Assembly (NCBI GenBank): GCA_964637955.1
Contig: CAZWXQ010000002.1
Location: 71,782-135,781 of the forward strand
Direction of reading: 5' to 3'
DNA length: 64,000 bases
Source of the DNA: an uncultured Gammaproteobacteria bacterium
GTDB taxonomy: Bacteria; Patescibacteriota; Microgenomatia; Levybacterales; UBA12049
The notes under the pieces were generated by a model. It had not been told where the DNA came from. It made no database searches and was given only the letters and a program-made list of their open reading frames with translations. The translations under genes and the position numbers were made by a program. Positions 3,589-32,496 of this stretch are shown here, one piece after another (the stretch's first letter is position 1; each line of letters starts with the position of its first letter).

Positions 3589-4005
3589 ATGGATCAAAAT
3601 AACACAACAACACCAACTACATCAGCTCCAGCTACTACACCAACACCGGTAGTGCCTGCTGCTCCTGCAGTGACTCCGACGCCTTTAACTGGCCCAGTGG
3701 TCTCTTCTCCTAAAAAATCTGGAATGGGAAAGAAGCTTTTGATTATTGTTTTGGTTCTGATTATTGTTCTGGTAATTCTTGGTGGAGCAGGTTATTATTA
3801 CTATGCGAATATGATGAGTAAGCCTCAGGAGGCAAAAGCACTTCCTACACTTGCTCCAGTCATGACAGCAACTCCTACGCAGGATCCAGAAGCTATAAAA
3901 GACGAAAATGACCTTGAAAAGACTGTAAGTGAGCTTGAAAATGCGAGCGATGAGGCAGAAATGACAACTGAATCAAAATCCTTGGAAACTGATTCTAACT
4001 TCTAG
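3589..4005 (+). CDS. hypothetical single-pass membrane protein with a Thr/Pro-rich N-terminus
   Basis: Low-complexity TTPTTSAPATTPTPVVP region followed by a TM helix LLIIVLVLIIVLVILGGAGYYYY. The start is 4 nt after the upstream stop. Confidence 0.5.
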   Translation: MDQNNTTTPTTSAPATTPTPVVPAAPAVTPTPLTGPVVSSPKKSGMGKKLLIIVLVLIIVLVILGGAGYYYYANMMSKPQEAKALPTLAPVMTATPTQDPEAIKDENDLEKTVSELENASDEAEMTTESKSLETDSNF

Positions 4006-4325
4006 GTTTCTCGTGTAATTAATATTACGCCTTCGTCAAATCCTCCAAGCCTTTCTAATTTTTCTTTTCTTGCAGTATTAATTTCATTTTCCGAAACTCC
4101 TTTTAAAGCAGCGAGTGAAATAATAACTTGCATTAAGTCTCCAGCTTCTACAGCAATCTTTTTACCTTCGCCATCAAATATTGCTTCAATTAATTCACGA
4201 GCCTCTTCATCCAATTTTTCTATATGTGAGTCAACTAAATCTTCTTCGGATTCGACAGTCGTGATCTTCGTGCCAGGTAAAGGAGGCAAATGCTTATATC
4301 CATCTCTGACTAATTTTCTTTCCAT
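4002..4325 (-). CDS. MazG-like nucleotide pyrophosphohydrolase (108 aa). The track ORF extends to 4517, but the internal Met at 4325 is the likely start.
   Basis: The protein begins MERKLVRDGY... The KLVRD motif, the EEARELIEA...DLMQVIISLAALKGVSENEI helix pair and the C-terminal ...EKLERLGGF are typical of the small all-alpha MazG/NTP-PPase family. The 64 upstream codons of the track ORF are hydrophobic junk and would overlap the divergent giant gene's promoter region. Confidence 0.55.
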   Translation of the reverse strand: MERKLVRDGYKHLPPLPGTKITTVESEEDLVDSHIEKLDEEARELIEAIFDGEGKKIAVEAGDLMQVIISLAALKGVSENEINTARKEKLERLGGFDEGVILITRET

Positions 4326-4379
4326 GGAGGAGATTATAATAAATAGAATTTTGGCAGTCAATTTTGCTATGCTTAAAAT

Positions 4380-7300
4380 ATGACAGAAACACTGCCTATT
4401 CCTATTGCTGCTGTAAATCTCCAGCCAAATCTGTCTGAAAGTCCTTACTATACACCAGAACAAAGAGCTCAGATATTTGAGGTTTGGGCTGCAGAAGAGG
4501 CGAAGATTCAATTGCAAGCTGCAAGTGATATGCAGTGGGAAAATGGGATGCGGATGGAAGCGACTTTTCCATCTTCTGATCTTGATCTATTGTTTTTCAA
4601 ACATGAATCAAGCGATGGAAAGTGGATAGGAGCAGAAATTAATAGAAAGTCTCTTCAGCACTTAATCAGACAGGAAATAGAAGGTTTATTATCATCAGGA
4701 AAACTTACTTCTGTGCCGGAGATAACTGAGCAGCAACTAAAATCTACGCGCCTTTATGGGTTAATGTTAAAATTATATCCGACTTGGCAAGAAGCGATTG
4801 CATCATCATATAGAGGTGCTATAAAACCTTACACTTTCTCAGCTGATTTGCCTCAAAAATATTGGAAAGGTGAGAAAGGCAAGGAACGAATCAGTGAAGC
4901 AGTTAAATTTATTATTGAGTCCCGTTTATTTATCAAAAAAAAGGATCCTGAAGAATTTAGAAAAGCGCTTCTTTCACTTTCTCCCAATTTATTGCCATAT
5001 ATTGGAAATTCTATTAGAAAATTAAATCCGATTAGATCTGAACAAGTTATTATAGATGCGTATCCAGAGTTAGGGTTAAAATTAGAAGATTTTGAAGTAG
5101 GAAATTATTGGCATAGATTGCATAATCTAGACGAGTTCTTGTCTGGTCCAGATGCAGCTACGGAAACAAGGCAGAGATTATTTCATCATCTTAGAAATCT
5201 TACAGATAAAACTTTATTGCTTCATGAGGAAGCTATGCGAAAAAAAATAAGTTCAAGTAATGGAAATGGATCACACGAATACTTGCAAGATGATGAATCT
5301 GTAGCTCAAGCCCTAGAAGGTGATCCTGAAGCCAGTCATTATTCAGAAAGTGAAAAAGAAGAAATACTTCAGATTTGGGAAAGATTACAAAAGAAAAGAG
5401 TGCAGGAAGAATTGAAGCTTGATGAATATGTAGCAGAAGATAAAGGTTATATTTATGCACATCAAGACAGGCTTGCAGATTTAGTACTAATGATTGAATC
5501 CGGGCAAGAAGTAGCTAATTTAGTAAAAAATAAAACAGAAGCAGGCATTTTAGTTAGCAGTATGATTGGACATGCCCAGAAAAGTTTGGGGTTCGCGTTA
5601 AAAACTGATGAATTTGATGAAAAAGTATTGAACCAGTTAGGAGTATTAAATATCATAAAGAAGTTTTATCCTCATTATCAGGTAGGTCTTTCAAGATCTT
5701 TACCATTAACCAGACCTTATCTATTTAAAGAGCCTCTACCCATAGATTATTGGAAAGGAAATGAAGGAAGGAAAAGATTAGGAGAAGCTATCAGGACTGT
5801 ATTGGAAGATCAAATCTGTCTAGAAAAAGTAGATCCTGAAACTTTCCGGAAGATTATTCTTTCTATTTCAGCTGAAACTATGCCATTTCTAGGACCAACT
5901 TTAAAAGAATTAAATCCAACCAATCCTGAAGATGCGCTTATTGCAGCATACCCTGAACTTAAGCTTCGAAGAGTGGATTTTTTACCCAGTACATTCTGGT
6001 CGGAGCATGTAAATGTACAAATAAATCCCGTTTCTGAATCTGAAAAAAATATGTTAAGAGCAGAACCTTCTATGCGTCCAAATGCATTAAAGACCAGGAG
6101 AACATTAATAGAAAAAATGAAAGAGTCTCAAGAAGATTTAATTCAGCGTCGTATTTTAGAACTTCGAGAAGTATTAGATTCTGAGGGTAAGGTATCTGAC
6201 GCTATTCATGTTGGAAATATTGTAGACGGCGTAACTTCTGAAGAAGGAAGAGATGAGCAAATTCAGCTAGAAAGCTTGGATTCAGGTTTGGTATCTGCTG
6301 ATCCAGAGGCTGAAGATAGCGCTGAGCAGGTTGACTCAGTCGCTTCTGAAGAGGTCCGGTATTATTCAGAAAGAGAGCTTACAGATATATATAAACATTG
6401 GGGGATATTGACTGATAAAAAAGTATTGGAATTAGAGCATAAGGAACAACAATATCTTAAAGATAGCCAGTATATTTCTAAAAATAAAGAAAGAATTGGA
6501 AGACTTATAAATGCTTTAATTGATGGTCAAGATATCACAGAAGAAGTTACCTCAGAAGTCGAGGCTCGCATTTTGGTTGGTGGTAGATTGGCAGATTTAA
6601 GAGATACTTTGGGGATTGCGTATGGTTCTTCAGATATTGATGCAAAAGCACTTGAGAATTTAGGACTTTTAAGTATTCTAAATAAATTTTATCCTAATTA
6701 TCAGGTAGGGCTTTCGCATGTAATGCGTAATTCAGCACCGCCTTACGCTTTTAAGGAGCCATTGCCAATAGGATATTGGAAAGGTAAAGGTGGCCAAGAA
6801 AGGCTAAATGAAGCGGTTAGGAGTACAGTAGAGCAAGTAATTGCTATTGAAAAGTTAGATCCTGAAGTTTTCAGGCAAGCTGTATTGTCTTTGTCTGCAG
6901 TTGATATTCCATTTATAGGTGCTGCAATAAAAGAATTGCATCCAGATTTTCCCCAAGATGCGATAATTGAAGCTTATCCTGAGCTTAAATTAAAAAGAAA
7001 TGATTTTAGTCCGGGAATTTTTTGGCATGATCATCTTATAACTGGATATGATCCATCACTGGATATAGATACAAAGTCAACAAAAGGACAATTTTTGAGA
7101 AAAAAAATATTAAATGATCTTGTTATTGTTCATCAGAGATTAGCTCAGGAGAAAGCGGGAAGAAGTCTGGAAGTTGGGGGCTTGACTGCAGGTTTGGCTA
7201 TATCAGAAACATCTATGCCAGAAGCTGTTCAGACAGAACAATTGGATTTAAGCTTAGTAAATTCCGAGCATTTGTCAACTGAGCTTGTAACTGCTGAGGT

Positions 7301-10300
7301 GCAGCTTAATCCAGAACTGGAAGCGATAATTCAAGAAGCACTTGATGGTAGAGGTGATGATTTTGAATTAGATTATGCAAAAAGTTACGATTTTCAAACC
7401 AAATTTAAAATTGCTGAAGCTTTGATAAGAGATGGAAGATTTCCTCATCCTGATTTTCTTATCGAAAACCTGGGTCCAAGTGAAAATGTTGTTGTTACCG
7501 AACTTAAAAATCAGCTTATAGCACTTAAGATAGAATCTAGACTTGAAAATAGTCCTGACTTAAAAGCTCTAATAGATAGCGGAGTTCCAATAGAAGTTGT
7601 TACTCAAATTGCAGTTGTGGAATTTTTCACAGATATAACTGATGAAGAAAAACTCGAAGAGCTTAGGTCAAGAATTACGCAGCCTGTTCTAAGAGAATAC
7701 CTTGGAATTTTAAAAGGACAAAAACAAGTTAAAGATTTAACCACTGAAGAAAAAATGGATATGATTCCGGATGAAGTTTTCTCAAATCCTCATATTGTTA
7801 AGTTTGGACTTCTTGAGAGATATTTTGAAGGTCAATTAATGCGCATGCTTACGGATAAAGGCATTTCTGAGGGAATGGCAGAGTTTGATAAATTGGTTCA
7901 GGAATCTCCTGCTGGAAGACAAGAATTTCTTGCTACGATCCGTGATAGGTTTTTGGAAATTGCTACAGCCCCAGCTCCACCAGGATTTCGATCTAAAATT
8001 TCGGTAAACGGGGAGTTAAGGCCATTTCCATCATTTGAACAAAATGCATTTTTGTATGATTTTATAAATAATAATTGTAGGTTTCTTACTGCTGAAACAG
8101 GATTAGGAAAATCTGCTACATCATTTATGGCAATGGAAAGTACAGACGCTAGGAAAGTTATGATTATTGCTCCAGCAATAGCCCGAGAAACCTGGAGAAT
8201 AGAAGAAGAGAAAATATTCACAAATCCTGGTCAAGTATTTATCGTAGAAAAAGCTGAGCATTTGTTTGATCCACAGATTTCTGAAAAAAAATACATTGTG
8301 ATTAGTCAAAATCTTCTAGGTACACTGGAAGGAAAACCGGAAGTGGCTACCAGAATTAAAGAATTAATAACAGAACAGGGTATAGAAGGTGCCATAATCG
8401 ATGAAATAGATAGTTTATCAAATCCAAGAGCAATTTCAGTAAAATCCACATTTCAAATACTTGATTTAATAAGAGCAAACTATGCTTTAGCTCATGACGG
8501 GAAAGAGGCACCAGTCTTAGGTCTTTCTGCAACTCCTATCAGAAAAAGTATCTCTGACTTAGATGCTCCCATGAGTATGCTTTACCCTGATTTGTATGCA
8601 AGATCTTTTGCAGCATCAAGTTCATCAAAAAGAACATTTAGTCAAAAGACTTTAAGTAACCCCGAAGTTGTTTTTGCTACCCTTATAGGCGAGAGAAGAA
8701 TGTTTCGATGGGAGAATGCAAATGGTGTTCAAGAGTTCAATTACGCCTCAATTCCAATTGATCTATCTCCATTTGAGAGAGAACTTTATGAATATGTTTT
8801 GGAAAGAGTACCAACGCAGTCGCTAGATAAAATCAGAATTCTAGAAGATTTACTGCTAAATCCAAATCTAATAAAAGCTGAAGTTAGACGCATCCAGAAA
8901 GATGGCATTGGAGAAGTTGATTTTATCGAGACTCTAGGAATTTTAAAAGGAGTAGCTAAAAAATGGAAAGACCATCATGGGGTTGATGCTCCACTTTCGG
9001 AAGATCAAATGCTAAGCATAGACAGGTTGGTAGAAATGGGATATACAGATTTGGCTATAAAATCATTTTTTACCCAAACGTATGATAATGGTTTGGACTA
9101 TTTAGTGGAATTATTCACAAGAGATACTGATGATCCGGATTTACAAACTTTAGGTAGATTCTGGAAGCCAAGAGAAATATCAACAAAATATGATGAACTA
9201 AGGCAAATGGTTCTTGATGGTCTAAGTCCAAGAACAGAAGATGGTCAGGTGGTCAGAGAAAAAGTTTTTATTGTGTCTCCTTCCAGAAAACAAGGAAGAA
9301 CAAAAGGTGTGCAGCAGAGAACAATTGCTTCTGAGAACGGAAGAGAAAAACTATATACAGAATCAGAACTTGATTACATTAATGATACAACTCTAATAAA
9401 AAGAATTAACGGATGGCTGGGAACTAATTATGGAAAAGACGCGGTAATGCTTCTTGATGGATCTATTCCTGTAAAAGCAAGAAATGCAATTATTCAAAGA
9501 TGGAAGTCAGATCCAAATGCGCAGGTTTTACTTGTAACTTTAGAATCTACTTACCAGAGTAGAGACTTTACCATTCAAGAAACTGTAAATGAATATGGTA
9601 TAAAAACTAAAGGTGTCACGAAAGTTTTCCTTGGATGGCCATGGTATCATCAGCAATTTAAGCAGATGGTTGGAAGAAGTCAGAGACAAGGACAAATAGT
9701 TCCGGTTAGAAATGTAGTCCTGGAAGCTAGTGGAACTATTGATCAAGGAAAAAGAGACCAGGTTATGTATACAGCGCTACTGACCAGACTTGCTCTTGGT
9801 GGAGCAAGGCTCACGCCTGAAGAACAAGAATTTTTCGACGAGAGAAAATCTTCAGCAAGATTAATTGATGCCGGATTAGATTCTACATACATGCGAGATT
9901 CTTTGGTAACAGTAAGAGCAAAAGGGGAGGATAGAGCAGTTGAGTTTTACGAAGCGAGAACGATTAGAGATAAAGAGAAAACAAATGAGGTGAAATTTGC
10001 AGAAAAATATTTCGACGAAGGGAATGATCAATATAGAGTTGCCGGTCAAAATTCTCAATTGGTAGCAGCAATCGCGTCTGAAACCCTTCCTAGTAATGCA
10101 AGAACTTTAAGTTTAGGCGCTGGAACACTTCTTTTTCAAAGAAGTCTAAAACGTCCGGTTGTAAACGTAGATATTAATAGCGCGATGATGGATGTAGCTA
10201 AACATCTCGTTGAAGAATACGGAGGAGTAAATGTGGTAGGTAGAGCTTCAAGACTTAATGAATCAGACTTTGTCAGTAATAGCTTTGATTTTGTGGATTC

Positions 10301-11150
10301 ATCTTTTGCGCTTCATTGGTCAAGTCTGGGTACAGATGTCCAGTCTTCAGAGAGAGTAAAAATTATTTCTCAGATAAATAGAGTCCTAACACTTGGTGGG
10401 AAAACTGTAATTACTGTTCCAGACAGTGCTTTTGATGAAGAAACATTTGAGAAATTTGCAGCAACTCTTGAGATAAATTTTGGATTTACGATAGATCAAA
10501 AATTTTCAGGAAAAACATTTGCAATAAGTAAAGCTGGAACAAGAAAGAGACTTGGCTGGGGATTAACCTTAGTAAAAAAAAGTGAAGTTTCACTTCAGGA
10601 CATGAATCTGGGAGATTTAAGTTTTCTTTATGACAGTTTATATTGGATAAGTCACCCGGAAAATGGAAAGAAAAAACCGGAAAAGAAAAAAGACAAAATT
10701 GAAATTGAGGCTGCGCAGATAGATCCGGAAAGATTTGAAATTATTAACTTAGATAATGAGAAAGAAACAATAGTTCTTGATGGCAAATCAGTTGAGGAAA
10801 ATGTTGAATTTCCTCAGATTGTTTCCGAAATTCAAGCGCCAACGGTTACTGGTGCTGTCGAAAATGAGTCAGTTTCACCTCAAGCTCCAGTTGTTGATAG
10901 TGCTTCTACTAATGATAAAGTTTCACCTCAAGCGCAAATTGAGGATTATGAATCATTCTTAAAACAAGACTATCCTTCTTTCAGAAGACTTATACGTCAA
11001 ATCCAAGCAGAAACAGAACTTGGTTGGGATGAGTCGATTGAAATGGCAATAGGTGTTTTGCAATCTTTAGATGCTTCTGGTAGACTTGCCTCGCAAGGAA
11101 GTGCTTATGCTAAGGTGATTAGTGAAGTTAAGAGAAGGAGTAAATTATGA
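4380..11150 (+). CDS. giant multidomain protein (2256 aa). Three tandem ~120-aa repeats of an unknown YWKG-motif domain at the N-terminus, then an SNF2-family helicase-like ATPase, then a class-I SAM-dependent methyltransferase domain, then an acidic C-terminal tail.
   Basis: SNF2 motifs: LRPFPSFEQ (Q-motif-like), AETGLGKS (I), MIIAPAIARETW (Ia), AIIDEIDSL (II, DExx), LGLSATPIRKS (III), GRSQRQGQ (VI). Methyltransferase motifs: LSLGAGTL (I), VVNVDIN (post-I acidic), FDFVDSSFALHW (II), LTLGGKTVITVPD (III). N-terminal repeats are three copies of ...KFYP.YQVGLS...PLPI.YWKG..G.ERL.EA......LDPE.FR...LSLSA...PF.G..IKELNP.....AII.AYPELKL.R.DF...FW. Confidence 0.8.
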   Translation: MTETLPIPIAAVNLQPNLSESPYYTPEQRAQIFEVWAAEEAKIQLQAASDMQWENGMRMEATFPSSDLDLLFFKHESSDGKWIGAEINRKSLQHLIRQEIEGLLSSGKLTSVPEITEQQLKSTRLYGLMLKLYPTWQEAIASSYRGAIKPYTFSADLPQKYWKGEKGKERISEAVKFIIESRLFIKKKDPEEFRKALLSLSPNLLPYIGNSIRKLNPIRSEQVIIDAYPELGLKLEDFEVGNYWHRLHNLDEFLSGPDAATETRQRLFHHLRNLTDKTLLLHEEAMRKKISSSNGNGSHEYLQDDESVAQALEGDPEASHYSESEKEEILQIWERLQKKRVQEELKLDEYVAEDKGYIYAHQDRLADLVLMIESGQEVANLVKNKTEAGILVSSMIGHAQKSLGFALKTDEFDEKVLNQLGVLNIIKKFYPHYQVGLSRSLPLTRPYLFKEPLPIDYWKGNEGRKRLGEAIRTVLEDQICLEKVDPETFRKIILSISAETMPFLGPTLKELNPTNPEDALIAAYPELKLRRVDFLPSTFWSEHVNVQINPVSESEKNMLRAEPSMRPNALKTRRTLIEKMKESQEDLIQRRILELREVLDSEGKVSDAIHVGNIVDGVTSEEGRDEQIQLESLDSGLVSADPEAEDSAEQVDSVASEEVRYYSERELTDIYKHWGILTDKKVLELEHKEQQYLKDSQYISKNKERIGRLINALIDGQDITEEVTSEVEARILVGGRLADLRDTLGIAYGSSDIDAKALENLGLLSILNKFYPNYQVGLSHVMRNSAPPYAFKEPLPIGYWKGKGGQERLNEAVRSTVEQVIAIEKLDPEVFRQAVLSLSAVDIPFIGAAIKELHPDFPQDAIIEAYPELKLKRNDFSPGIFWHDHLITGYDPSLDIDTKSTKGQFLRKKILNDLVIVHQRLAQEKAGRSLEVGGLTAGLAISETSMPEAVQTEQLDLSLVNSEHLSTELVTAEVQLNPELEAIIQEALDGRGDDFELDYAKSYDFQTKFKIAEALIRDGRFPHPDFLIENLGPSENVVVTELKNQLIALKIESRLENSPDLKALIDSGVPIEVVTQIAVVEFFTDITDEEKLEELRSRITQPVLREYLGILKGQKQVKDLTTEEKMDMIPDEVFSNPHIVKFGLLERYFEGQLMRMLTDKGISEGMAEFDKLVQESPAGRQEFLATIRDRFLEIATAPAPPGFRSKISVNGELRPFPSFEQNAFLYDFINNNCRFLTAETGLGKSATSFMAMESTDARKVMIIAPAIARETWRIEEEKIFTNPGQVFIVEKAEHLFDPQISEKKYIVISQNLLGTLEGKPEVATRIKELITEQGIEGAIIDEIDSLSNPRAISVKSTFQILDLIRANYALAHDGKEAPVLGLSATPIRKSISDLDAPMSMLYPDLYARSFAASSSSKRTFSQKTLSNPEVVFATLIGERRMFRWENANGVQEFNYASIPIDLSPFERELYEYVLERVPTQSLDKIRILEDLLLNPNLIKAEVRRIQKDGIGEVDFIETLGILKGVAKKWKDHHGVDAPLSEDQMLSIDRLVEMGYTDLAIKSFFTQTYDNGLDYLVELFTRDTDDPDLQTLGRFWKPREISTKYDELRQMVLDGLSPRTEDGQVVREKVFIVSPSRKQGRTKGVQQRTIASENGREKLYTESELDYINDTTLIKRINGWLGTNYGKDAVMLLDGSIPVKARNAIIQRWKSDPNAQVLLVTLESTYQSRDFTIQETVNEYGIKTKGVTKVFLGWPWYHQQFKQMVGRSQRQGQIVPVRNVVLEASGTIDQGKRDQVMYTALLTRLALGGARLTPEEQEFFDERKSSARLIDAGLDSTYMRDSLVTVRAKGEDRAVEFYEARTIRDKEKTNEVKFAEKYFDEGNDQYRVAGQNSQLVAAIASETLPSNARTLSLGAGTLLFQRSLKRPVVNVDINSAMMDVAKHLVEEYGGVNVVGRASRLNESDFVSNSFDFVDSSFALHWSSLGTDVQSSERVKIISQINRVLTLGGKTVITVPDSAFDEETFEKFAATLEINFGFTIDQKFSGKTFAISKAGTRKRLGWGLTLVKKSEVSLQDMNLGDLSFLYDSLYWISHPENGKKKPEKKKDKIEIEAAQIDPERFEIINLDNEKETIVLDGKSVEENVEFPQIVSEIQAPTVTGAVENESVSPQAPVVDSASTNDKVSPQAQIEDYESFLKQDYPSFRRLIRQIQAETELGWDESIEMAIGVLQSLDASGRLASQGSAYAKVISEVKRRSKL
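4752..7026 (+). repeat. three diverged tandem copies of a ~360-nt coding unit (~120-aa domain) inside the giant gene. Units lie at approximately 4752-5111, 5640-6000 and 6660-7026.
   Basis: Protein-level repeats are ~45-55% identical. Conserved nucleotide stretches such as ttttatcct(c/a)attatcaggtagg occur at ~5662 and ~6682. Confidence 0.7.
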
Positions 11151-11704
11151 ATGAGCAAGATAGAGCAGGCTATTTGGAGCAAAGAAACAATGATTTTTTT
11201 GGAATGAGCGTTGTAGCTTTAGCTGAATCATTGCAAGACCGTGTAGTAGTGGATTCAGTTTCTGGAAAAAAATTTAGATTAATGACTCTTCAGCCATGGA
11301 CTAAAGATAGCGTTGGTCCAAGATATAGTGCTATTCAGGGAATGCAAGCAGGAGATTTATATGCTGCGCCATATAAACAAGGTGCTAGGGAAACGACCCA
11401 AGCATTAATTGTAGCGTCTGAAGATGGAAATGTTGGCGCCTGCGTTAGGATAGTTAAAGCTGAGGGTTGGGATGAAATTGCACGTAGATTTGTTCCTATG
11501 AAAACCGAAGGATCTCTGGTTAAATTTTTAGGATTGGAACCTGAAGAAAAAGGAAGTTTACGTTTTACTAATGACTCTGAATATTTAACTTTAATTAGGT
11601 CTCCTAGAGAAAATGCTAGTGTCGAGCCAGCAGTTTCAGTTCCCGATGTTGACGTAGCGCGGGCGGATGCTAGAATGCGAAAATTGGCAGAAGGTTTAAG
11701 CTAG
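11147..11704 (+). CDS. hypothetical protein (185 aa), translationally coupled to the giant gene
   Basis: Its ATG at 11147 overlaps the giant gene's TGA at 11148-11150 (ATGA overlap). No recognisable domain. Confidence 0.55.
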   Translation: MNEQDRAGYLEQRNNDFFGMSVVALAESLQDRVVVDSVSGKKFRLMTLQPWTKDSVGPRYSAIQGMQAGDLYAAPYKQGARETTQALIVASEDGNVGACVRIVKAEGWDEIARRFVPMKTEGSLVKFLGLEPEEKGSLRFTNDSEYLTLIRSPRENASVEPAVSVPDVDVARADARMRKLAEGLS

Positions 11705-12013: not shown

Positions 12014-12044
12014 TCTCAAAAGTACTAAAGTAAAGCCTAAAATA

Positions 12045-12078
12045 AAACAGCCAGAATATTTGGCTGTTTTATTTTTTC
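12045..12078 (+). terminator. rho-independent terminator after the KGG peptide gene
   Basis: Stem aaacagcca / tggctgttt with loop gaatatt, followed by tattttttc. Confidence 0.5.
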
Positions 12079-12497: not shown

Positions 12498-12525
12498 AAA
12501 GCAAACCGCATTCGCGGTTTGCTTT
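12498..12525. terminator. bidirectional terminator hairpin between convergent genes
   Basis: Perfect 12-bp stem aaagcaaaccgc / gcggtttgcttt with loop attc. A T-rich tract tttaatttat follows on the + side. The hairpin overlaps the stop of the minus-strand gene by 2 nt. Confidence 0.55.
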
Positions 12526-13009
12526 AATTTATCACGAAATTGTTTTCATCTAAAATTTTATTTAGAAGCTTAATGCTTTTTTCAAGTGCAATATCTAGGA
12601 ACATAATATCTTTAGGAGTGATATCTATAAAAATATGAAAAGTGCCTTTAGCATCTTTTTTCCAATTCCAGTTGGTAACACCTTTAAAAATTGCTTTTTT
12701 GTATCCATTCTGTATTTTTAGCTCACAAAGATACTCTAGGAGGATATGTTCGAACAGGTGGCCAATTTCTGTATTCTTAACCTCTTCGTTAAAGGGAAGT
12801 CCTGAATCATTAAAGCATTCTGTTTTAAGTACTGTTGGTAAATTGTATCTGAGTATTTGATGCGTGAAAGGGAGGTGAATAGTATGGAAAAAAGAAGTAT
12901 TTAGCGTCATTATTATAGACGTTTGATCTGAAAGATGTTTAATTGCTAAGTTGTATGACTTTTCGTTTACTAATAGGGGATTAATGTTGTGGATAGTTTT
13001 GATGCTCAT
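12524..13009 (-). CDS. hypothetical protein (161 aa)
   Basis: Clean ORF with no recognisable domain. A TTGACA hexamer (+ strand tgtcaa at 13103-13108) lies ~95 nt upstream on the minus strand. Confidence 0.5.
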   Translation of the reverse strand: MSIKTIHNINPLLVNEKSYNLAIKHLSDQTSIIMTLNTSFFHTIHLPFTHQILRYNLPTVLKTECFNDSGLPFNEEVKNTEIGHLFEHILLEYLCELKIQNGYKKAIFKGVTNWNWKKDAKGTFHIFIDITPKDIMFLDIALEKSIKLLNKILDENNFVIN

Positions 13010-15577: not shown

Positions 15578-15636
15578 AAAAGGTCGCCATAATCAAACTA
15601 TAGGATTATATTTTTAAATTTATCACTAATCAGGTG

Positions 15637-15666
15637 TTTGACTTTAGCCTCAATTTTGGGTATAAT
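15637..15666 (+). promoter_or_regulatory. near-consensus sigma70 promoter (TTGACT, 17-nt spacer, TATAAT)
   Basis: ttgact ttagcctcaattttggg tataat. The -10 ends 12 nt before the ATG at 15679, so the 5' UTR is only about 6 nt. Confidence 0.5.
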
Positions 15667-15678
15667 CCACAAACCTCA

Positions 15679-16377
15679 ATGATAGAAGAGCTCCGAAAGG
15701 ATTTACAGAAACTGTCCAACAAGAAAAGAGCTTCTGATATGCAAAAATTCTTCAAAACTGGGGAAGGAGAATATGCATACGGAGACGTCTTTATTGGTTT
15801 AACTGTGCCTCAGTCCAGAAAAGTAGCCGAAAAATATAAAGATATTTCGTTTGAAGATCTTTATAAATTAATTAGATCAGAGATTCATGAAGAAAGATTT
15901 ATAGCACTTCTTGTTTTAGTCAATAATTTTAGAGCAGATGAAATGTTACAGCGTAGGATTTATGAATTTTTTATGAAGAATATTAAGTTTGTGAATAATT
16001 GGGATTTGGTAGATTTGTCCGCTGATAAAATTGTGGGAGGTTATCTTATAGATAAGCCAAAGCATGTCCTATATAAGCTTGCTTCATCGAAAAATATGTG
16101 GGAAAGAAGAATAGCTATGATTGCTACGTACAATTTTATAAAAAATGAAATGTTTGATGATGCTATAGGTATTGCTGAGAAGCTAATTGAAGATGATAAT
16201 GATCTTATTCAAAAAGCTGTTGGTTGGATGCTTCGCGAAGTAGGGAAAAGAAATAAATCTATTGAAGAAGCGTTTCTTAAAAAACACCATAAGGAAATGG
16301 GAAGAACTGCGCTTCGTTACTCTCTTGAGAAATTCCCAGAGGACTCTAGAAAAGAGTACATGTTAGGAATAGTTTAA
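15679..16377 (+). CDS. DNA alkylation repair protein, AlkD/AlkC-like HEAT-repeat DNA glycosylase family (232 aa). The track ORF starts at 15634, but the promoter position argues for the ATG at 15679.
   Basis: Family signature ...NNWDLVDLSADKIVGGYL...SKNMWERRIAMIATYNFIK...LIQKAVGWMLREVGKRN.... The 15634 start would place the consensus promoter inside the coding sequence. Confidence 0.7.
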   Translation: MIEELRKDLQKLSNKKRASDMQKFFKTGEGEYAYGDVFIGLTVPQSRKVAEKYKDISFEDLYKLIRSEIHEERFIALLVLVNNFRADEMLQRRIYEFFMKNIKFVNNWDLVDLSADKIVGGYLIDKPKHVLYKLASSKNMWERRIAMIATYNFIKNEMFDDAIGIAEKLIEDDNDLIQKAVGWMLREVGKRNKSIEEAFLKKHHKEMGRTALRYSLEKFPEDSRKEYMLGIV

Positions 16378-18904: not shown

Positions 18905-19567
18905 ATGGAATTTGAAAATACGAGCTACAGGGTTTTGGACGGTTTTAGTCTAAGTCTGGATCATAATGATATTTATGGAACTGAAAGAGTGGGGGTAATT
19001 TTAACAAATAGATCTCACGATGAAGTAAATTTTCTATTGGGAAATTGGGTGACGCATGAAATCGATGCAAGAATTGGAAAGCACGAGAATCCAGTTAGGG
19101 TTTTGGATTTGGGCGGTGGAATTAAGTCTGAGGCAGCTAAGGGATTTAAAGGTATTTATAAAGATAATATAGATATTACTAACATTGATTTAGCCTTTAT
19201 GGACGAGCCGGTAAGTGAGGTAAATAAGGTTTTGGGAAAAGTAGAAGAGATGCCTTTTTCATCAGATAGTTATGACGTTATTTATTCTTCATTTACTTTT
19301 ATGCATCTTTCCCTTCGTCAGCGACAAGCAGCATTAAAAGAAATAAGTAGAGTGTTGGCCGTTGGTGGAGTAGCTATAATAGATCATGAAGCTACTTATG
19401 ATGGCAAAGACAAGTCCGATCTAGGGCTTGAGGATCTTGCGCTTTTAGACGAGATAGGGATGGATGCATATATCACCCCTATACGCGTTGGGCCTGATTC
19501 TAGGTTAAATAAATATAAGTTGTTATTTATAGAAAAATCGGTTTCATTAGCATTGACAGGAGAATAA
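18905..19567 (+). CDS. class I SAM-dependent methyltransferase (Methyltransf_11-like)
   Basis: Motif I VLDLGGGI, motif II YDVIYSSFTFMHL and motif III LAVGGVAII. Confidence 0.65.
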   Translation: MEFENTSYRVLDGFSLSLDHNDIYGTERVGVILTNRSHDEVNFLLGNWVTHEIDARIGKHENPVRVLDLGGGIKSEAAKGFKGIYKDNIDITNIDLAFMDEPVSEVNKVLGKVEEMPFSSDSYDVIYSSFTFMHLSLRQRQAALKEISRVLAVGGVAIIDHEATYDGKDKSDLGLEDLALLDEIGMDAYITPIRVGPDSRLNKYKLLFIEKSVSLALTGE

Positions 19568-26374: not shown

Positions 26375-29194
26375 ATGATTCAAATAATTAGAGTATTTTC
26401 AAAAAATGAAAGTGATGATTTAAAAGGGAAAGAAATTTTAAATCAATTTAAAGATCCGAATATAAAAAAGTTAAGGACTGCCAGAATTTATAGACTTGAG
26501 GGAGTAGATAGGAAAACTGCAAAATTTTTGGCAGAAAAGTTATTCTCCGAGTCAATAAGCCAAGATTATTCTATTGATAAACCCATATTTGTTGTTAAAT
26601 CAAAAGTTGAAATAGCATATAAACCCGGAGTCATGAATCCTGAAGTTGCTTCTATCTTAAAAGCAGCGAAAGATTTGAAGATAAAATTACTCGCAGCGGA
26701 TTCATCAACTGAATTTTATTTTTTTGGAAAAATTGAAAATGCAAAAGCACTAGAATTAATTAATAAGCACCAAATATATAATCCACTTATAGAATACATT
26801 GTAGAAAAATCTCCCAAAACACTTTTTATTAAAGGAAAAATTGGATCAACAAGAATAATTGGAATTCGAATAATGTCAAATGAGGAAATGATGTTTTTGT
26901 CAAAAGACAAATTGTTTTTAAATCTCGAAGAAATGAAAGTTATTCAAAGTTACTTTCAAAAAATTAAAAGAGATCCAACGGATTTAGAGTTAGAAACACT
27001 GGCTCAAACTTGGAGCGAGCACTGCGCCCATAAAACGTTTAAAGCAGATTTAATAATCGATGGTAAAAAGAAAAAGCCTTTAATTGATCGAATTCGAGAT
27101 GAGGCTTTGAAGCATGACGAGAATATCGTTTCAGCATTTGGCGATAATTCTGGAGTAATGAGATTTTATGATGGGTTTTCTATTTGTGGGAAAGTAGAGA
27201 CCCATAACAGCCCCTCTGCAATTGAGCCTTACGGTGGAGCAATGACCGGATCTGGTGGGGTATTTCGAGATATTCTCGGTACTGGGCAAGGAGCAAAAAC
27301 TATCGCATCAACTGATATTTTTTGTTTTGCAAATCCAGATTTAAGCAAAAATGATTTACCACCAGGATGTCTTAGACCGGAATATCTTTTAAAAAGAGTA
27401 GTGATGGGAGTAAGAGATTATGGAAATAGAATGGGAATTCCAACAAATAATGGTTCCGTACATTTTCATAATGATTTTCGTGCAAAACCCACAGTTATAG
27501 TCGGTGCATATGGAATTATTCCTACAAAAAAAGCTAAAAAAGGAAAGCCTGCAAATGGAGATTTAATTATTGCTGTTGGTGGAAGGACAGGGAGAGATGG
27601 AGTTCATGGTGCTACTTTTTCCTCTGCAGAAATGACTGATAAGACAATTTCTATCAATTCATCTGCAGTTCAAATTGGAAATGCGATTGAAGAAAAAAGA
27701 ATGTTCGATGCAATAATTGAAGCCCGTGATCAGGATTTAATACGAGCAATCACAGATTGTGGAGCTGGAGGATTTTCTTCAGCAATTGGTGAAATAGGAT
27801 CAGAAACTGGAGTTAAAGTAGATTTGTCTCTTGCACCTCTTAAATATCACGGACTTTCTCCTTGGGAAATTTGGGTATCAGAATCTCAAGAAAGAATGAT
27901 ACTCGCAGTATCGAAAAAGAGCAGTAAAAAAGTTTTAGAAATTTGTAAAAAGTTTAATGTGGAGGCAACAGTGCTTGGTAAATTCACAAATACAAAAAAA
28001 CTAGAAATATTTTATGGAAAAAAACGAATTGGTAATTTGTCGATGGAGTTTCTGCATCACGGATTGCCTCAAAGAACTATGGTTGGAAAAAAACCAAGAG
28101 TTAAGATTGTGTCTAAAAAAGAACAAAGTGTTCCAAATAATGAAAAAGAATGGATCGACGTTTTTAAGAAAGTTCTAGCGAATGGAAATGTAAATTCTAA
28201 AGAGCCAATTGTAAGAATGTACGATCATAGTGTTCAAGGAACAAATGATTTACAGCCGTACGGAGGAGTAGATCTAGATGCGCCAAACAACAGTGCAGTT
28301 CTTAGGCCGATTCTAAACAAAAAATATGGAATGGTTTTGTCTCACGGCTTAAATCCTGTTTTAAATAATATCGATCCATATGGTGGAGGTATTTGGGCTG
28401 GAGTCGAAGCTCTAAGTAATTATGTCTCAGTCGGAGGAGATATAGAAAATGCATCTTTAATAAATAATTATATTTGGCCATTTCCAGATGAAGAGTCTTT
28501 ATGGTCACTTGATAAATCAGTTGACGCAGTAATCGATTTAATGAAAGGTTTAAAAATACCAGTTATATCTGGAAAAGATAGCTTATCTTCCACATACAGA
28601 AAAGGAGACATGGTTATTAAAATTCCTCCGGTTTTATGCATTTCTGCTTTTGGGAGAATTCCTGATACAACAAAAACTATAAGTTCGGATTTAAAAAAGG
28701 ACAGCTCACTAATTTGCTTGATAGGTAATTTGGACACTGATTCTATGGGAGGATCTGTATATTTTGATGTGAACAATTTGATTGGAGATAGTGTTCCAAA
28801 AATAAACTTAAAAGAATTCGGAAAGCTTGCTAAGCAAATAAATAAAGGGATTGTAAGCGGAGATATTTTATCTTGTCATGATATTTCAGAAGGTGGAATT
28901 CTAACTTCTGCTTTTGAAATGTGCATAGGAGGAAATATTGGCATGAGTTTGAAAATTTCAAAAAATAAAAGGCCAGATTATTTCTTATTTAATGAAACGG
29001 CAGGAACTTTTTTAATAGAAGTAGAAAATAAAAAAATAGCAGAAAAAATATTTGGAAAAAATAATTTTATAGTTCTAGGAAAAACACAAAAAGAAAAATC
29101 AGTTGATGTAATAAATGGTGAAAAAATATTTAGTGCAGATTTGTTCGAATTAAAAAAAGCTTGGCAAAAACCAATGAAGAGAATATTTTCATAA
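26375..29194 (+). CDS. purL: phosphoribosylformylglycinamidine synthase subunit PurL with two PurS-like domains fused at the N-terminus (PurS-PurS-PurL, 939 aa)
   Basis: PurL core WSEHCAHKTF...GGAMTGSGGVFRD...TDCGAGGFSSAIGE. It is preceded by ~200 aa containing two ~85-aa modules (MIQIIRVFSKNE... and VKSKVEIAYKPGVMNPE...) with PurS-like beta-alpha topology. Confidence 0.85.
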   Translation: MIQIIRVFSKNESDDLKGKEILNQFKDPNIKKLRTARIYRLEGVDRKTAKFLAEKLFSESISQDYSIDKPIFVVKSKVEIAYKPGVMNPEVASILKAAKDLKIKLLAADSSTEFYFFGKIENAKALELINKHQIYNPLIEYIVEKSPKTLFIKGKIGSTRIIGIRIMSNEEMMFLSKDKLFLNLEEMKVIQSYFQKIKRDPTDLELETLAQTWSEHCAHKTFKADLIIDGKKKKPLIDRIRDEALKHDENIVSAFGDNSGVMRFYDGFSICGKVETHNSPSAIEPYGGAMTGSGGVFRDILGTGQGAKTIASTDIFCFANPDLSKNDLPPGCLRPEYLLKRVVMGVRDYGNRMGIPTNNGSVHFHNDFRAKPTVIVGAYGIIPTKKAKKGKPANGDLIIAVGGRTGRDGVHGATFSSAEMTDKTISINSSAVQIGNAIEEKRMFDAIIEARDQDLIRAITDCGAGGFSSAIGEIGSETGVKVDLSLAPLKYHGLSPWEIWVSESQERMILAVSKKSSKKVLEICKKFNVEATVLGKFTNTKKLEIFYGKKRIGNLSMEFLHHGLPQRTMVGKKPRVKIVSKKEQSVPNNEKEWIDVFKKVLANGNVNSKEPIVRMYDHSVQGTNDLQPYGGVDLDAPNNSAVLRPILNKKYGMVLSHGLNPVLNNIDPYGGGIWAGVEALSNYVSVGGDIENASLINNYIWPFPDEESLWSLDKSVDAVIDLMKGLKIPVISGKDSLSSTYRKGDMVIKIPPVLCISAFGRIPDTTKTISSDLKKDSSLICLIGNLDTDSMGGSVYFDVNNLIGDSVPKINLKEFGKLAKQINKGIVSGDILSCHDISEGGILTSAFEMCIGGNIGMSLKISKNKRPDYFLFNETAGTFLIEVENKKIAEKIFGKNNFIVLGKTQKEKSVDVINGEKIFSADLFELKKAWQKPMKRIFS

Positions 29195-29196
29195 AA

Positions 29197-29982
29197 ATGA
29201 AAAAACCAAAAGCAATAATTATAAAAGCGGACGGAATTAATAGGGATTATGAAATGATGTTTGCGTTTAATCTTGCAGGAGCAGATGCAAAGGTCGTGCA
29301 TATTAACGACTTAAGATCAAAAAAAGAAATATTAAGTGACTATCAGATTTTGGGAATTCCAGGAGGATTTGCTTATGGAGATGATATAGTTTCAGGAAAA
29401 ATATTGGCAACGGAAATGATCGCATATCTTGGAGATGAAATTAGAAAGTTTGTAAAACGCTCAAATACAGCAGTGATTGGGGTTTGTAATGGATTTCAGG
29501 TTCTTGTGAGAACGGGACTTGTACCATTTGGAAATCTTGGGGAGATGGATGTGACTTTAGTAAATAATGATTCAGGACATTTTGAATGCAGATGGGTAAG
29601 AGTGAAAGTGGAGAATAATTCTAAATCAAAGTTTTTAAAAAATATCGAGGACGAAATATTTTGGTATCCGGTAGCGCATGGTGAAGGAAAATTCATTGCA
29701 GATCCAAAAATTATCTCACGAGTTGAAAAAGAAAATTTAGTTACGTTTAGATATGTCGATGAATCTGGATTACCAACTCAAAACTATCCAGAAAACCCAA
29801 ATGGTTCAATTAATGCAATCGTTGGGATAAGCGATGAATCTGGAAGAGTAATTGGGCTTATGCCTCATCCTGAATGTTTTGTTAGAATCGAGCAGCATCC
29901 CAACTGGAGAAGGGGAGGTGTAAAATCTCCTGACGGATTACCTTTATTTAAAAATATTGTTGATTTTGTAAAAAAGGTATGA
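29197..29982 (+). CDS. purQ: phosphoribosylformylglycinamidine synthase glutamine amidotransferase subunit PurQ. Start at the ATG at 29197; the track start at 29161 is an in-frame TTG inside purL.
   Basis: MKKPKAIIIKADGINRDYEMMFAFNLAGADAKVV..., GIPGGFAYGDD, the nucleophile in IGVCNGFQVL, and the HPE motif in GLMPHPECF. Confidence 0.85.
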   Translation: MKKPKAIIIKADGINRDYEMMFAFNLAGADAKVVHINDLRSKKEILSDYQILGIPGGFAYGDDIVSGKILATEMIAYLGDEIRKFVKRSNTAVIGVCNGFQVLVRTGLVPFGNLGEMDVTLVNNDSGHFECRWVRVKVENNSKSKFLKNIEDEIFWYPVAHGEGKFIADPKIISRVEKENLVTFRYVDESGLPTQNYPENPNGSINAIVGISDESGRVIGLMPHPECFVRIEQHPNWRRGGVKSPDGLPLFKNIVDFVKKV

Positions 29983-30836
29983 AGATTGGATTATTCTCAA
30001 CATTTGCAGATAAGGAAGCATATGATTTAGTTAACGCTGTGCAAGACAGTGTTTCAACGGGAAAAATACCAGATTCAGAGATTTCATTCGTTTTTTCTAA
30101 TCGAGATATTGGCGAGAATCCTACCACTGATAGAATTTTAGGAGATTTGATACATCGAAGGTTCCCCTTGATTAAATCTTCTGCATATAAGTTTGATACA
30201 CGTGGTAGAGTTTTGGCAAGAATAGCTGAATCCGGTGGAGATGAAAGGTTAATCAAAGATTGGCGAAATAGATATGGGGAAGAGATTCAGAGGAAATTAC
30301 CCGACACGGATATTGATTTGCTATTAGGAGACATGTGGATATGGGGAGACAGAATGGTAAATGAACGCACTGCATATAATCTGCATCCAGCACTTCCAGG
30401 GGGCCCCAAAGGTGAATGGTATAAAGTAATTTGGGATTTAATAGAGCAAAACGAGGAAAAGGCAGGAGTGATGATGCATAAATTAACTCCTGAGCTCGAT
30501 GAAGGGCCACCAGTTTCATTTGCAGAATATTCAATAAGAGGACCAGAGTTTGATTACTTATGGCCATTATTGCCACCTGATCCCGAGCATAGGCAAATGG
30601 TTATTGATCATGAACGATCACTTCGAGGAAAAACTAGACATCCACTCCATAAAGAAATAAGGGAAAAGGGTTTTGCGCGAGAAATACCATTGGTAATTCA
30701 AACGACAAAAGCTCTGGCTGAGGGTAGGATTGAGATTGAAGGAGGAGCGCCAGTAGATCTCACTTGGGAAGTTGATCAGGCATTAAATTTGCGATTGCAA
30801 GGAATAGAAGGACAATCAAGAAAGGAGGTGAATTAA
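29979..30836 (+). CDS. PurN-like formyltransferase (GAR transformylase family) with a ~80-aa C-terminal extension
   Basis: YNLHPALPGGPKG (PurN NLHPSLLP), LDEGPPVSF (PurN DAGPII catalytic Asp region) and ISFVFSNR. ATGA start overlap with purQ. GC is clearly elevated. Confidence 0.6.
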   Translation: MKIGLFSTFADKEAYDLVNAVQDSVSTGKIPDSEISFVFSNRDIGENPTTDRILGDLIHRRFPLIKSSAYKFDTRGRVLARIAESGGDERLIKDWRNRYGEEIQRKLPDTDIDLLLGDMWIWGDRMVNERTAYNLHPALPGGPKGEWYKVIWDLIEQNEEKAGVMMHKLTPELDEGPPVSFAEYSIRGPEFDYLWPLLPPDPEHRQMVIDHERSLRGKTRHPLHKEIREKGFAREIPLVIQTTKALAEGRIEIEGGAPVDLTWEVDQALNLRLQGIEGQSRKEVN

Positions 30837-30838
30837 TT

Positions 30839-31954
30839 ATGGATTTAAAACCAAAAGTTTTATTTACAGACGGAGAAGGGCCATTGGTAAAACTTGATTT
30901 AGCACAAGAAATAATGGGAAGAATTACCTTTGAACATCAAGGAGAAGAAATTAATGGAAAAGATTTTTTTGGTATCTTAAGTTTCTATGATGATTATCTT
31001 GCAGAAGTTGGGACAGAGGGCTATCAGGCAGGGGATACTCTGGCGCTTATTGGGCCTCATCTTATAGCGCATGGAATTACCGATGAGGATGTTTTGGAAG
31101 AAGCAAGAAGAGCTGAGGTTTCTCCAGGAGCTGAAGCATATATTTCAGGATTAAAAGGAGATGGATGGGACGTAAGAGTTATTTCAACAGCATACAGACC
31201 CATGTGGGATTTGGTTGGAAATTATCTCGGGATTCCTAAGGAGGATATTGCTTGTACTGATCTTTCTTTATCTAGTTTAAGACAAAGATATGGAAATGAT
31301 GATTTCAATTCTTTCGTTCAAATGAGAGAACAAAGCATTCTTGGTTTAATGAGTCTTGCAAAAGAAGCGATGGAAACTCCTGGGAGCGTGGTGGATGTGT
31401 TTAACAATCTTAAATTCCACGAACTTCGAGACACATTGAATGAATTTTATTTTAAAGATTTACGTCAGTGGTTTGGCTATGAAACTCTTGAAGCGATCAG
31501 GGTCATGGGAGGCAGGAGAAAGGTTGAAGCAGCACAAAGATTCGCAAATGATTTGGGAGTAGATATGGGGAGCATTGCTTATGTGGGAGATAGTATTACG
31601 GATAAAGCAATGATGTTTGAGTTGAGAGAAAGAGGCGGACTTCCAATCGCTATAAATGGAAATGATTTTGCTCTTGAAGGAGCAGTTGCATCTGTTGCAA
31701 CTAAAGATAATGTGGGAGCGGTTCGTCCTCTTCTTGATGCATGGCAAGGGGGCGGTATTGACGAGGTTTCAAGATTTGTAAGACAATCACATGAGCCTAT
31801 TTCATTTGGTCGAGAAAGAGAAGCGGGACATGAAAGACCTGATGGGGCACAGTACTGGATTAGGTTAAATGGAGAAGCATTTTTGCCAAATGAAAAAGCT
31901 GCTCATAAAGCAGCTAGAAAAGAAATAAGAGGAATAGCAGCTGATCTTGGGTAG
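30839..31954 (+). CDS. hypothetical protein with HAD-like motifs (371 aa)
   Basis: VGDSITDKAMM (HAD motif IV-like GDxxxD) and N-terminal FTDGEGPL (degenerate motif I). Assignment is weak. GC is elevated. Confidence 0.4.
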   Translation: MDLKPKVLFTDGEGPLVKLDLAQEIMGRITFEHQGEEINGKDFFGILSFYDDYLAEVGTEGYQAGDTLALIGPHLIAHGITDEDVLEEARRAEVSPGAEAYISGLKGDGWDVRVISTAYRPMWDLVGNYLGIPKEDIACTDLSLSSLRQRYGNDDFNSFVQMREQSILGLMSLAKEAMETPGSVVDVFNNLKFHELRDTLNEFYFKDLRQWFGYETLEAIRVMGGRRKVEAAQRFANDLGVDMGSIAYVGDSITDKAMMFELRERGGLPIAINGNDFALEGAVASVATKDNVGAVRPLLDAWQGGGIDEVSRFVRQSHEPISFGREREAGHERPDGAQYWIRLNGEAFLPNEKAAHKAARKEIRGIAADLG

Positions 31955-31962
31955 ATTTAATT

Positions 31963-32496
31963 ATGGGAAAAAGCATAAATAACTGGTATGTGGTGACCGG
32001 CGGGCCTTCTAGTGGTAAGACAACGATTTTAGAATATCTTGGGAAAATGAGATATAAAGTTTATTACGAATGGGCAAGAATTCTTATCGATCAAGAATTG
32101 GCTAAGGGTTTAAAAATAGAAGAGATCAGAAAAGATGAAATGAAATTTCAGGAAAAAGTTCTTGATTTGAAAATTAATTTTGAAAAGAAATTAGATCCAA
32201 AAGATCAAATATTCATGGAAAGGGGAATTCCTGATACGCAGGCATATTTAAATTTTACAAAAGCTAAAATTAAACCTTCATGGAATAAAGCAATTAAAAA
32301 ATCTAATTATAAAAAAGTATTTATTATGGAGATTGGAGAATTTAAAAAGGATTATGCGAGAACGGAAAGTGCAGAAGAGGCGATGGAGATTGACAGATTA
32401 CTTTCGAGAAGTTATAAAAGTTTAGATATTCCTGTCGTTCGAGTTCCTTTTATGACAGTTTCCAAAAGGGCAAAATTTATTTTAGATAATTTATGA
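31963..32496 (+). CDS. AAA_28/NadR-type P-loop ATPase (predicted small-molecule kinase)
   Basis: WYVVTGGPSSGKTTILEYL Walker A in a ~175-aa protein, typical of the AAA_28 family. Confidence 0.55.
   Translation: MGKSINNWYVVTGGPSSGKTTILEYLGKMRYKVYYEWARILIDQELAKGLKIEEIRKDEMKFQEKVLDLKINFEKKLDPKDQIFMERGIPDTQAYLNFTKAKIKPSWNKAIKKSNYKKVFIMEIGEFKKDYARTESAEEAMEIDRLLSRSYKSLDIPVVRVPFMTVSKRAKFILDNL

Follow-up and report, generated by a model that had tools for sequence, protein, structure and literature searches.

What does a bacterium do with a protein that joins an array of repeats, a SWI2/SNF2-type motor and an S-adenosylmethionine (SAM) methyltransferase in one polypeptide? The question is raised by a 64,000-nucleotide stretch of contig CAZWXQ010000002.1 from an uncultured bacterium (positions 71,782 to 135,781 of the forward strand; hereafter, the window), in which a giant gene encodes such a protein of 2256 amino acids (aa) and overlaps the gene of a 185-aa partner. 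Pairs of SNF2 and methyltransferase domains recur in restriction, anti-restriction and eukaryotic chromatin biology and, to our knowledge, all described bacterial examples use DNA amino-methyltransferases. Here we describe the giant protein as the fusion of two genes of a rare cassette, A (adaptor) and B (SNF2-methyltransferase), followed by the partner gene C. That this fused cassette carries out adaptor-targeted, ATP-driven methylation or remodelling of nucleic acid is, in our judgement, an evenly balanced proposition.

Two cassette genes in one reading frame

A preliminary description of this DNA had named two open reading frames (ORFs) of 2256 and 185 aa joined by an ATGA overlap and had given the domain order repeats-SNF2-methyltransferase. 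Both ORFs are present, with the overlap at 11147-11150, and our assignments support that order:

4380..11150, + strand: giant gene, A and B fused; 2256 aa plus stop, from the ORF list and translation
4380..5279, + strand: adaptor module 1, residues 1-300, with its core (residues 114-250) at 4719..5129; self-comparison and alignment
5280..6299, + strand: adaptor module 2, residues 301-640, core (411-546) at 5610..6017; self-comparison and alignment
6300..7184, + strand: adaptor module 3, residues 641-935, core (752-890) at 6633..7049; self-comparison and alignment
7185..7334, + strand: junction or linker, residues 936-985, aligning with neither the A nor the B family
7335..7994, + strand: N-terminal helical domain of the B family, residues 986-1205, conserved in 27 B homologs and all-helical in an AlphaFold2 (AF2) model
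7995..9749, + strand: SWI2/SNF2-type ATPase, residues 1206-1790, with helical inserts between two RecA lobes
8091..8114, 8394..8417, 8523..8543, 9549..9572 and 9663..9695, + strand: ATPase motifs I, II, III, V and VI, in that order
9750..10094, + strand: helical bridge between ATPase and methyltransferase, residues 1791-1905, from AF2 secondary structure and conservation across B homologs
10095..10589, + strand: class-I SAM methyltransferase, nucleomethylin/Rrp8-like by predicted structure, residues 1906-2070
10107..10127, 10158..10178 and 10290..10319, + strand: methyltransferase motifs, namely SAM motif I (LSLGAGT), VVNVDIN (including VDIN) and FVDSSFALHW
10590..11147, + strand: C-terminal region of the B family, residues 2071-2256, in which a short beta segment and a low-complexity stretch precede a conserved helical end; low AF2 confidence
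11147..11704, + strand: partner gene C, 185 aa, translationally coupled to the giant gene by the ATGA overlap at 11147..11150

With residues 1151-2256 as query we recovered 27 homologs of ~1320 aa that share 37-45% identity over 84-100% of the query. The stretch alignable with these stand-alone B proteins starts at about residue 985, making the B-like part the C-terminal ~1270 aa, and an N-terminal extension is found in none of the 27. Because stand-alone B proteins start at this point, and because A and B are separate genes elsewhere, the window protein is, on sequence comparison, the A and B genes of the cassette fused into one reading frame. The idea of a single-polypeptide system did not survive this comparison: the system is generally multi-gene, with repeat proteins that are normally encoded separately and are fused in the window.

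The order of the cassette is conserved. In the loci of P0067, P0056, P0060, P0064 and P0071, and in the genome and metagenome loci, one to six same-strand genes lie 5' of B and a C homolog lies directly 3'. Candidatus Roizmanbacteria loci, for example, encode a 552-aa DUF4046-type A protein, then a 1319-aa B and a 191-aa C, and a 1.1-Mb metagenomic contig keeps the A-B-C order, but with an unrelated 600-aa repeat protein as A. A profile of C matched the next gene in all loci with downstream sequence (hmmsearch E values 1e-42 to 1e-110), the exception being L025, where the ORF is truncated and was not detected; this supports the tight coupling to the 185-aa partner proposed for the window.

The A genes are the changeable part. 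They belong to several unrelated repeat families, the gene in the Roizmanbacteria loci and in L013 being a DUF4046-type repeat protein homologous to the window modules, and they number six in L007, five each in L015 and L025 and four in L008. In these four loci the paralogous A genes stand in tandem and often overlap (L007 572-14352; L008 4504-14468; L015 4175-14742; L025 852-12213).

Two more distant relatives show other arrangements. In L013 (7959-13300), a DUF4046 protein (P0004) is linked by a stop/start overlap to a 1110-aa enzyme with clear SNF2, Helicase_C and methyltransferase matches, which aligns with the window protein across ATPase and methyltransferase; this pair has neither a C gene nor the C-terminal tail described below. 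P0076 (L014 8001-13595) is an independent 1864-aa polypeptide with about ten N-terminal ~110-aa repeats of another family, followed by SNF2 and Methyltransf_11 domains.

The family is rare, with 27 B homologs among 5.8 billion clusters and six loci among 185,579 species genomes. Named hosts of the relatives are Candidatus Roizmanbacteria, Candidatus Curtissbacteria and metagenome-assembled genomes labelled Gammaproteobacteria or Lysobacterales. The exact sequence of the giant protein is present in the protein collection as a singleton cluster. Literature searches, including SNF2 with methyltransferase in the candidate phyla radiation (CPR), returned no description of the cassette or of its tail, and we found no described family that explains the whole protein. 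The cassette is thus rare and undescribed in the searchable literature, and it belongs to the SNF2-methyltransferase theme.

At the sequence level, an AAGGAG Shine-Dalgarno-like site (11135..11140) lies 7 nt 5' of the start of C. The start codon of the giant gene has no obvious Shine-Dalgarno site, and a promoter-like site (TTGGCA-17-TAAAAT, 4351-4379) ends on the base that precedes its ATG. The conservation of residues 20-36 in module 1 argues for the annotated start codon or one further 5'.

The motor is of the SWI2/SNF2 type

The claim of a full SNF2-family ATPase was borne out by motifs and by predicted structure. Motifs I (AETGLGKS, residue 1238), II (DEID, 1341), III (SATPIR, 1383) and VI (QMVGRSQRQGQ, 1762) are all present in the window protein and follow the forms seen across the 27 homologs (AETGLGK(T/S), DEID, (T/S)ATPIR and QM.GRS.RQGQ); both the ATPase and the methyltransferase retain intact catalytic motifs. 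Pfam alone says less. On the window protein it gave sub-threshold DEAD, Helicase_C and ResIII matches and none to SNF2-rel_dom (PF00176), a family matched at E < 0.1 by 11 of the 27 members (best, 6.3e-6). SNF2 matches are clear in the distant relatives P0076 and the L013 enzyme.

We built an AF2 model of residues 991-2189 on the homolog alignment (mean predicted local distance difference test (pLDDT) score, 77) and compared it with the PDB using Foldseek. The top 50 matches were all SWI2/SNF2 remodelers, among them BRG1, Rad5, Chd1, ISWI, INO80, Rad54, Mot1 and CSB. The predicted ATPase has the SNF2-specific fold, with helical inserts in both lobes, and is closest to known SNF2 structures. 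RapA/HepA and Mot1 likewise combine a SNF2 motor with accessory N-terminal domains; neither, however, has a methyltransferase or adaptors, and RapA, the only sequence-level link, is non-significant (E 0.51).

The methyltransferase resembles Rrp8

The preliminary description had assigned the C-terminal enzyme to a Methyltransf_11-like class I fold without the DPPY/NPPY motif of DNA amino-methyltransferases, and we agree on both counts. Residues 1910-2011 score 34.3 bits against Pfam Methyltransf_11 (cut-off, 21.2), and no DPPY or NPPY motif was found in the window protein. A profile of the methyltransferase region matched YcgJ, ToxA, phosphoethanolamine and sarcosine methyltransferases and the mRNA cap guanine-N7 enzyme in the PDB, and no DNA amino-methyltransferase.

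Structure was more specific than sequence. Nucleomethylin/Rrp8 (PDB 2zfu) was the best match of the predicted methyltransferase by a clear margin, and in this model the enzyme is nucleomethylin/Rrp8-like. Rrp8 makes N1-methyladenosine (m1A) in large-subunit rRNA (PMC6085284). Unlike the window enzyme, nucleomethylin/Rrp8 is eukaryotic, nucleolar and not fused to an ATPase, and sequence similarity between the two is undetectable with profiles: PF05148 (Methyltransf_8) was not matched by the window protein and appears only as a weak precomputed match on the L013 enzyme. A second, stand-alone Methyltransf_11 protein of 220 aa is encoded 7 kb downstream of the operon (18905-19567).

This likeness opens the possibility of an RNA- or ribosome-directed housekeeping enzyme, in which an Rrp8-like methyltransferase would modify rRNA or tRNA bases, the superfamily 2 ATPase would remodel RNA or ribonucleoproteins and the repeats would be RNA-binding adaptors. 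The resemblance to nucleomethylin/Rrp8, to cap or 18S guanine-N7 enzymes and to Trm-type enzymes fits this idea, as does the position of several loci among housekeeping genes. SWI2/SNF2 enzymes, by contrast, are double-stranded-DNA translocases, and it is these, not RNA helicases, that the ATPase matches. The rarity and patchiness of the family and its hypervariable, multi-copy A genes are also unlike a core RNA-modification enzyme, and we consider an RNA-directed role distinctly improbable.

DUF4046-like repeats and a shared C-terminal peptide

The triplicated ~120-aa domain of the preliminary description proved to be three real copies of a larger module of ~280-330 aa with a ~135-aa conserved core. 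YWKG recurs at residues 161, 457 and 799 and AYPEL at 227, 523 and 865, and module-versus-module BLASTP gave E values of 3e-30, 8e-38 and 2e-70. Because the modules are only 24-38% identical to one another and show only short, weak repeats at the DNA level, the triplication is old and not an assembly artefact of repeated DNA.

A profile search with the three modules, run exhaustively, found only 47 proteins among 1.84 billion representatives. Most consist of a ~65-70-aa helical unit repeated over 400-700 aa, and the unit follows the pattern YW.G..G...A..A.RWL.E ... GL.GML ... AYPEL..WEF. The repeat, described earlier as unrecognised, relates to Pfam DUF4046 (PF13255), which was matched by 11 of 46 repeat-profile proteins (best E value, 1.2e-15); that family itself carries no functional assignment, and literature searches on DUF4046 and on the homing-endonuclease repeat yielded no description of DUF4046 function. 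PF13255 is listed among the precomputed domains of the giant protein, and our hmmscan of the three modules at E <= 5 gave no match. Both groups have the ~65-70-aa helical unit with YW.G..G and AYPEL in common. They differ in length: DUF4046 proteins are long arrays, whereas each window module comprises a helical leader and about one and a half units, equivalent to the first ~240 aa of the stand-alone DUF4046-type A proteins.

A few repeat-profile proteins also bear a transposase-type helix-turn-helix domain, sigma-70 region 2 or a homing-endonuclease-associated repeat, and this company points to DNA-related roles for DUF4046-like repeats. Two of the matches, P0015 and P0020 (1087 aa and 1657 aa), combine many DUF4046-like units with sigma-70-region-2-like segments, which suggests that the repeat may also be used in transcription-related proteins; Pfam Sigma70_r2 is recorded for 1 of 46 repeat-profile matches, the other such segments in P0015 and P0020 having been judged by eye.

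What links such dissimilar A proteins to one enzyme? Most A and C proteins outside the window end in a shared peptide, AN..L...L (about SP-E-E-A-N-x-x-L-x-x-x-L). Of 45 cassette A and C proteins, 31 carry the pattern A[ND]..[LIMF]...[LIVMFA] within their final 22 residues, against 1 of 116 neighbours (Fisher p = 3e-21). Examples are ISPDEANEELMRFLEVKDE, ISPEEANEWLRNLLQEG and EADNYLRDLVFGED, with ISPEDANRELERFLGS or EAANKYLRDLIGR in C proteins. Tail variants are common to the A and C proteins of one locus; each A gene in L007, L008 and L015 carries the same C-terminal peptide, which has diverged to ML.ELE in L025. The shared tail is most likely an amphipathic docking peptide that would hold A and C on B, and the N-terminal helical domain of B in the AF2 model is a candidate receptor for it. 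We also looked for tail remnants in the modules and the A-B junction of the giant protein and rejected them, as the top score with a position-specific scoring matrix (PSSM) of 40 tails was 1.0 against a shuffle mean of 3.1.

A tail of this kind could also belong to a protein-methylating machine. Here A, C or another DNA-bound protein would be methylated, the tail acting as a tether as the chemoreceptor pentapeptide does for CheR, and the SNF2 motor would remove or reposition the modified protein as Mot1 or RapA do. A C-terminal peptide shared by client proteins fits a tether or a substrate signal, the structural matches include Mot1 and CSB, two SNF2 enzymes that work on protein-DNA complexes, and the methyltransferase has no DNA amino-methyltransferase motif. 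Yet an enzyme that methylates RNA bases clearly leads the structural matches of the methyltransferase, and protein methyltransferases are absent from the top ranks, with PRMT1 only at E 0.8. We consider protein methylation unlikely.

Genomic neighbourhoods

No gene besides A, B and C is common to the loci compared. Two features flank the operon in the window:

4002..4325, - strand: MazG/PRA-PH-like gene, 107 aa in its realistic extent (not the 171-aa TTG ORF), divergent and upstream
12039..12075, strand not given: hairpin with a 17-bp stem and a T-run, found by pattern match only

The hairpin is likely a terminator that closes the two-gene operon, facing a convergent gene at 12524..13009. The MazG-like gene lies where the preliminary description put it, separated from the giant gene by 54 bp, but it occurs in no other locus, and we rejected it as a component of the system. 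Single occurrences are the rule for such neighbours: MazG-like, AlkD-like, methylpurine glycosylase (near P0076), Mrr-like (L017) and type I restriction-modification (R-M) genes (L013) were each seen once.

Some cassettes sit among housekeeping genes. In L015 (696-16000), the cassette lies in the cell-division and cell-wall cluster, with mraZ-rsmH-ftsI on one side and a Mur ligase gene on the other; in L007 (13765-17243), it is directly upstream of Mur ligase-like genes; and in L016, it adjoins glnA, gatCAB and clpB. Elsewhere the company is mobile or defence-like. KilA-N and integrase genes are near the cassette in L001-L003, and AbiEii and antitoxin genes in L004. The L013 pair is flanked by type IV secretion genes (TrbC, T4SS pilin and VirB4-like), a serine recombinase, Shedu SduA_C and a complete type I R-M system, a region that looks like an integrative conjugative element.

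Such surroundings recall the DNA adenine methylase-SWI2/SNF2 dyad of polyvalent proteins, whose archetype is phage P1 DarB (Iyer et al. 2017, PMC5512222), and the preliminary description had cited DarB and DISARM as contexts in which SNF2 and methyltransferase domains occur together. On this account, the giant protein would be an anti-restriction protein of a mobile element that methylates the element's own DNA on entry. The likeness is one of plan: both are very large polypeptides that couple a SWI2/SNF2 ATPase to a SAM methyltransferase, inviting the idea of motor-assisted methylation. The ATPase also matches phrog_62, annotated as 'DNA helicase' in PHROG, at E 7e-21, and the mobile settings of the distant L013 relative and of the KilA-N and integrase loci agree with the account. 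The details do not. DarB-type proteins carry an N6-adenine DNA amino-methyltransferase N-terminal to the ATPase, whereas the window enzyme is Rrp8-like, C-terminal and lacks DPPY. DarB-type proteins are encoded by phages, plasmids and conjugative elements. The enzyme of the window family also comes with adaptor genes, tail-bearing elsewhere, and a conserved 185-aa partner. Using tblastn, we found only two weak, SNF2-only matches among 50,697 phage records and none among 72,556 plasmids, and IMG/VR contigs yielded none. Most loci, like the window, are on chromosomes, and the ~4 kb upstream and ~8 kb downstream that were annotated hold no mobility genes in the window or in the majority of loci. 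The methyltransferase type and these searches led us to reject a DarB-like or phage origin, and an anti-restriction role of the DarB kind is highly improbable. The DarB/polyvalent dyad is the nearest described theme, and the window family lacks its defining features.

Could the cassette instead be an anti-phage or anti-plasmid defence? Variable A proteins would sense an invader, and the methyltransferase would act as effector by making replication-blocking N-methylpurines, a mechanism that overlaps with adaptor-targeted methylation of nucleic acid. The patchy spread over distant phyla, the contrast between fast-evolving, multi-copy A genes and a constant hub, and the AbiEii, antitoxin, Mrr, type I R-M and Shedu genes near some copies all fit. 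So do two DNA repair genes. In the window, 4 kb downstream of the operon, lies a DNA alkylation repair (AlkD-like) gene (15634..16377; PF08713, E 1.5e-59), and P0076 (L014) has a gene for a methylpurine DNA glycosylase 6.5 kb upstream. The AlkD-like neighbour would be suggestive if the methyltransferase makes N-methylpurines; as a conserved link, these genes had to be discarded, each being found in one locus, and they amount to a weak hint.

Comparison with known defence systems speaks against this role. PADLOC returned no match for A or C, and for B only mad2 at E 7e-9, confined to the methyltransferase domain; on the partner and flanking genes nothing was significant, the best being PDC-M35B (E 0.0034) on a 259-aa upstream gene. 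Signature proteins of DISARM, BREX, Zorya and MADS were absent, and we dismissed these systems as explanations. Compared with DISARM (DrmD with DrmMI/MII), BREX type 3 (BrxHII), Zorya (ZorD) and type I and III R-M, the window lacks DrmA/B/C, PglZ, BrxC, ZorA/B and the HsdS/HsdR nuclease. No neighbour is common to the loci, no nuclease or other obvious effector is conserved and several loci are purely housekeeping. We consider such a defence system unlikely; some defence or anti-defence role is conceivable, and a part in inter-genomic conflict is weakly favoured.

The rest of the window (G+C, 36%) has features of its own. A cytochrome bo3 ubiquinol oxidase subunit I gene (CyoB, E 1.5e-288) lies at 51014-52984 and a purine biosynthesis cluster at 26375-38791 (a purL-like gene with AIRS domains, a GATase_5 gene, a purM-like gene and purD), interrupted by genes for HAD-family hydrolases, an AAA_28 kinase-like protein, a C39 peptidase/TPR protein (other strand) and an S9/S33 hydrolase. 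CyoB and the purine genes suggest that the host respires, unlike the CPR hosts of most cassette relatives, and that it probably lies outside the CPR. Two paralogous genes side by side at 40973-44036 encode ~500-aa proteins, each ending in a ferredoxin-NADP reductase-like module and each with a ~280-aa N-terminal half without assignment. An 803-aa protein (12-2423) weakly resembles ABC1 atypical kinases (E 4e-5) in the C-terminal half only, its N-terminal 490 aa being without assignment; as called from the ATG at position 12, its exact sequence is absent from the protein collection.

Discussion

The evidence assembled here describes a cassette in which a conserved hub enzyme, with a SWI2/SNF2 motor and a methyltransferase of predicted Rrp8-like fold, is encoded between interchangeable repeat proteins and a conserved partner. 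In the mechanism that we propose, A and C would dock on B by the shared tail or, in the window, by covalent fusion of three A-type modules. The repeat arrays would select the target, either DNA or a DNA-bound factor; the motor would spend ATP to move along or distort the duplex, exposing bases; and the methyltransferase would then methylate an exposed base, most plausibly at a purine ring nitrogen because its closest structural relatives modify that position. C would be a conserved accessory subunit or regulator. That adaptor and enzyme act as one unit is supported by their fusion in the window, a Rosetta-stone argument.

Several observations weigh against adaptor-targeted action on nucleic acid. 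The end of the window partner, ...ARADARMRKLAEGLS, fits the minimal tail pattern with a PSSM score of only 0.4 bits, which is not significant, and the partner has no match in Pfam, NCBIfam, PHROG, PADLOC or the PDB, its best being non-significant ones to SH3-like and DUF2169 domains. The repeat fold is equally elusive: an AF2 model from three sequences reached a pLDDT of 58, and Foldseek returned no match below E 0.97. The methyltransferase fold as modelled leaves the substrate unfixed, since its close folds include many small-molecule enzymes as well as Rrp8, whose substrate is rRNA. Neighbourhoods are mixed and range, from locus to locus, between housekeeping genes, among them the division and cell wall (dcw) cluster, and mobile or defence genes. 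Finally, the A-B junction of the window rests on a single assembly, two Logan contigs confirming only the 3' end of the giant gene and the partner.

At its most specific, the cassette would be an adaptor-motor-writer system, in which fast-evolving repeat proteins, attached to a SNF2 translocase by one shared C-terminal helix or by fusion, direct an Rrp8-like purine N-methyltransferase to write m1A- or N7-methylguanine (m7G)-type methylation on DNA. The mark could be aimed at invaders, whose DNA it would label or damage, or the system could be a bacterial, chromatin-like epigenetic writer. We hold this version to be doubtful. What sets the B family apart from the described examples is the pairing of a SNF2 motor with an Rrp8-like methyltransferase amid interchangeable, tail-sharing repeat-array proteins. 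A ring-nitrogen methylpurine written on DNA would make this a DNA modification system of a new kind, and a protein or RNA target would mean a new use of the SNF2 motor. The cassette offers a defined, putative docking peptide, a compact hub enzyme and a natural set of adaptor variants.

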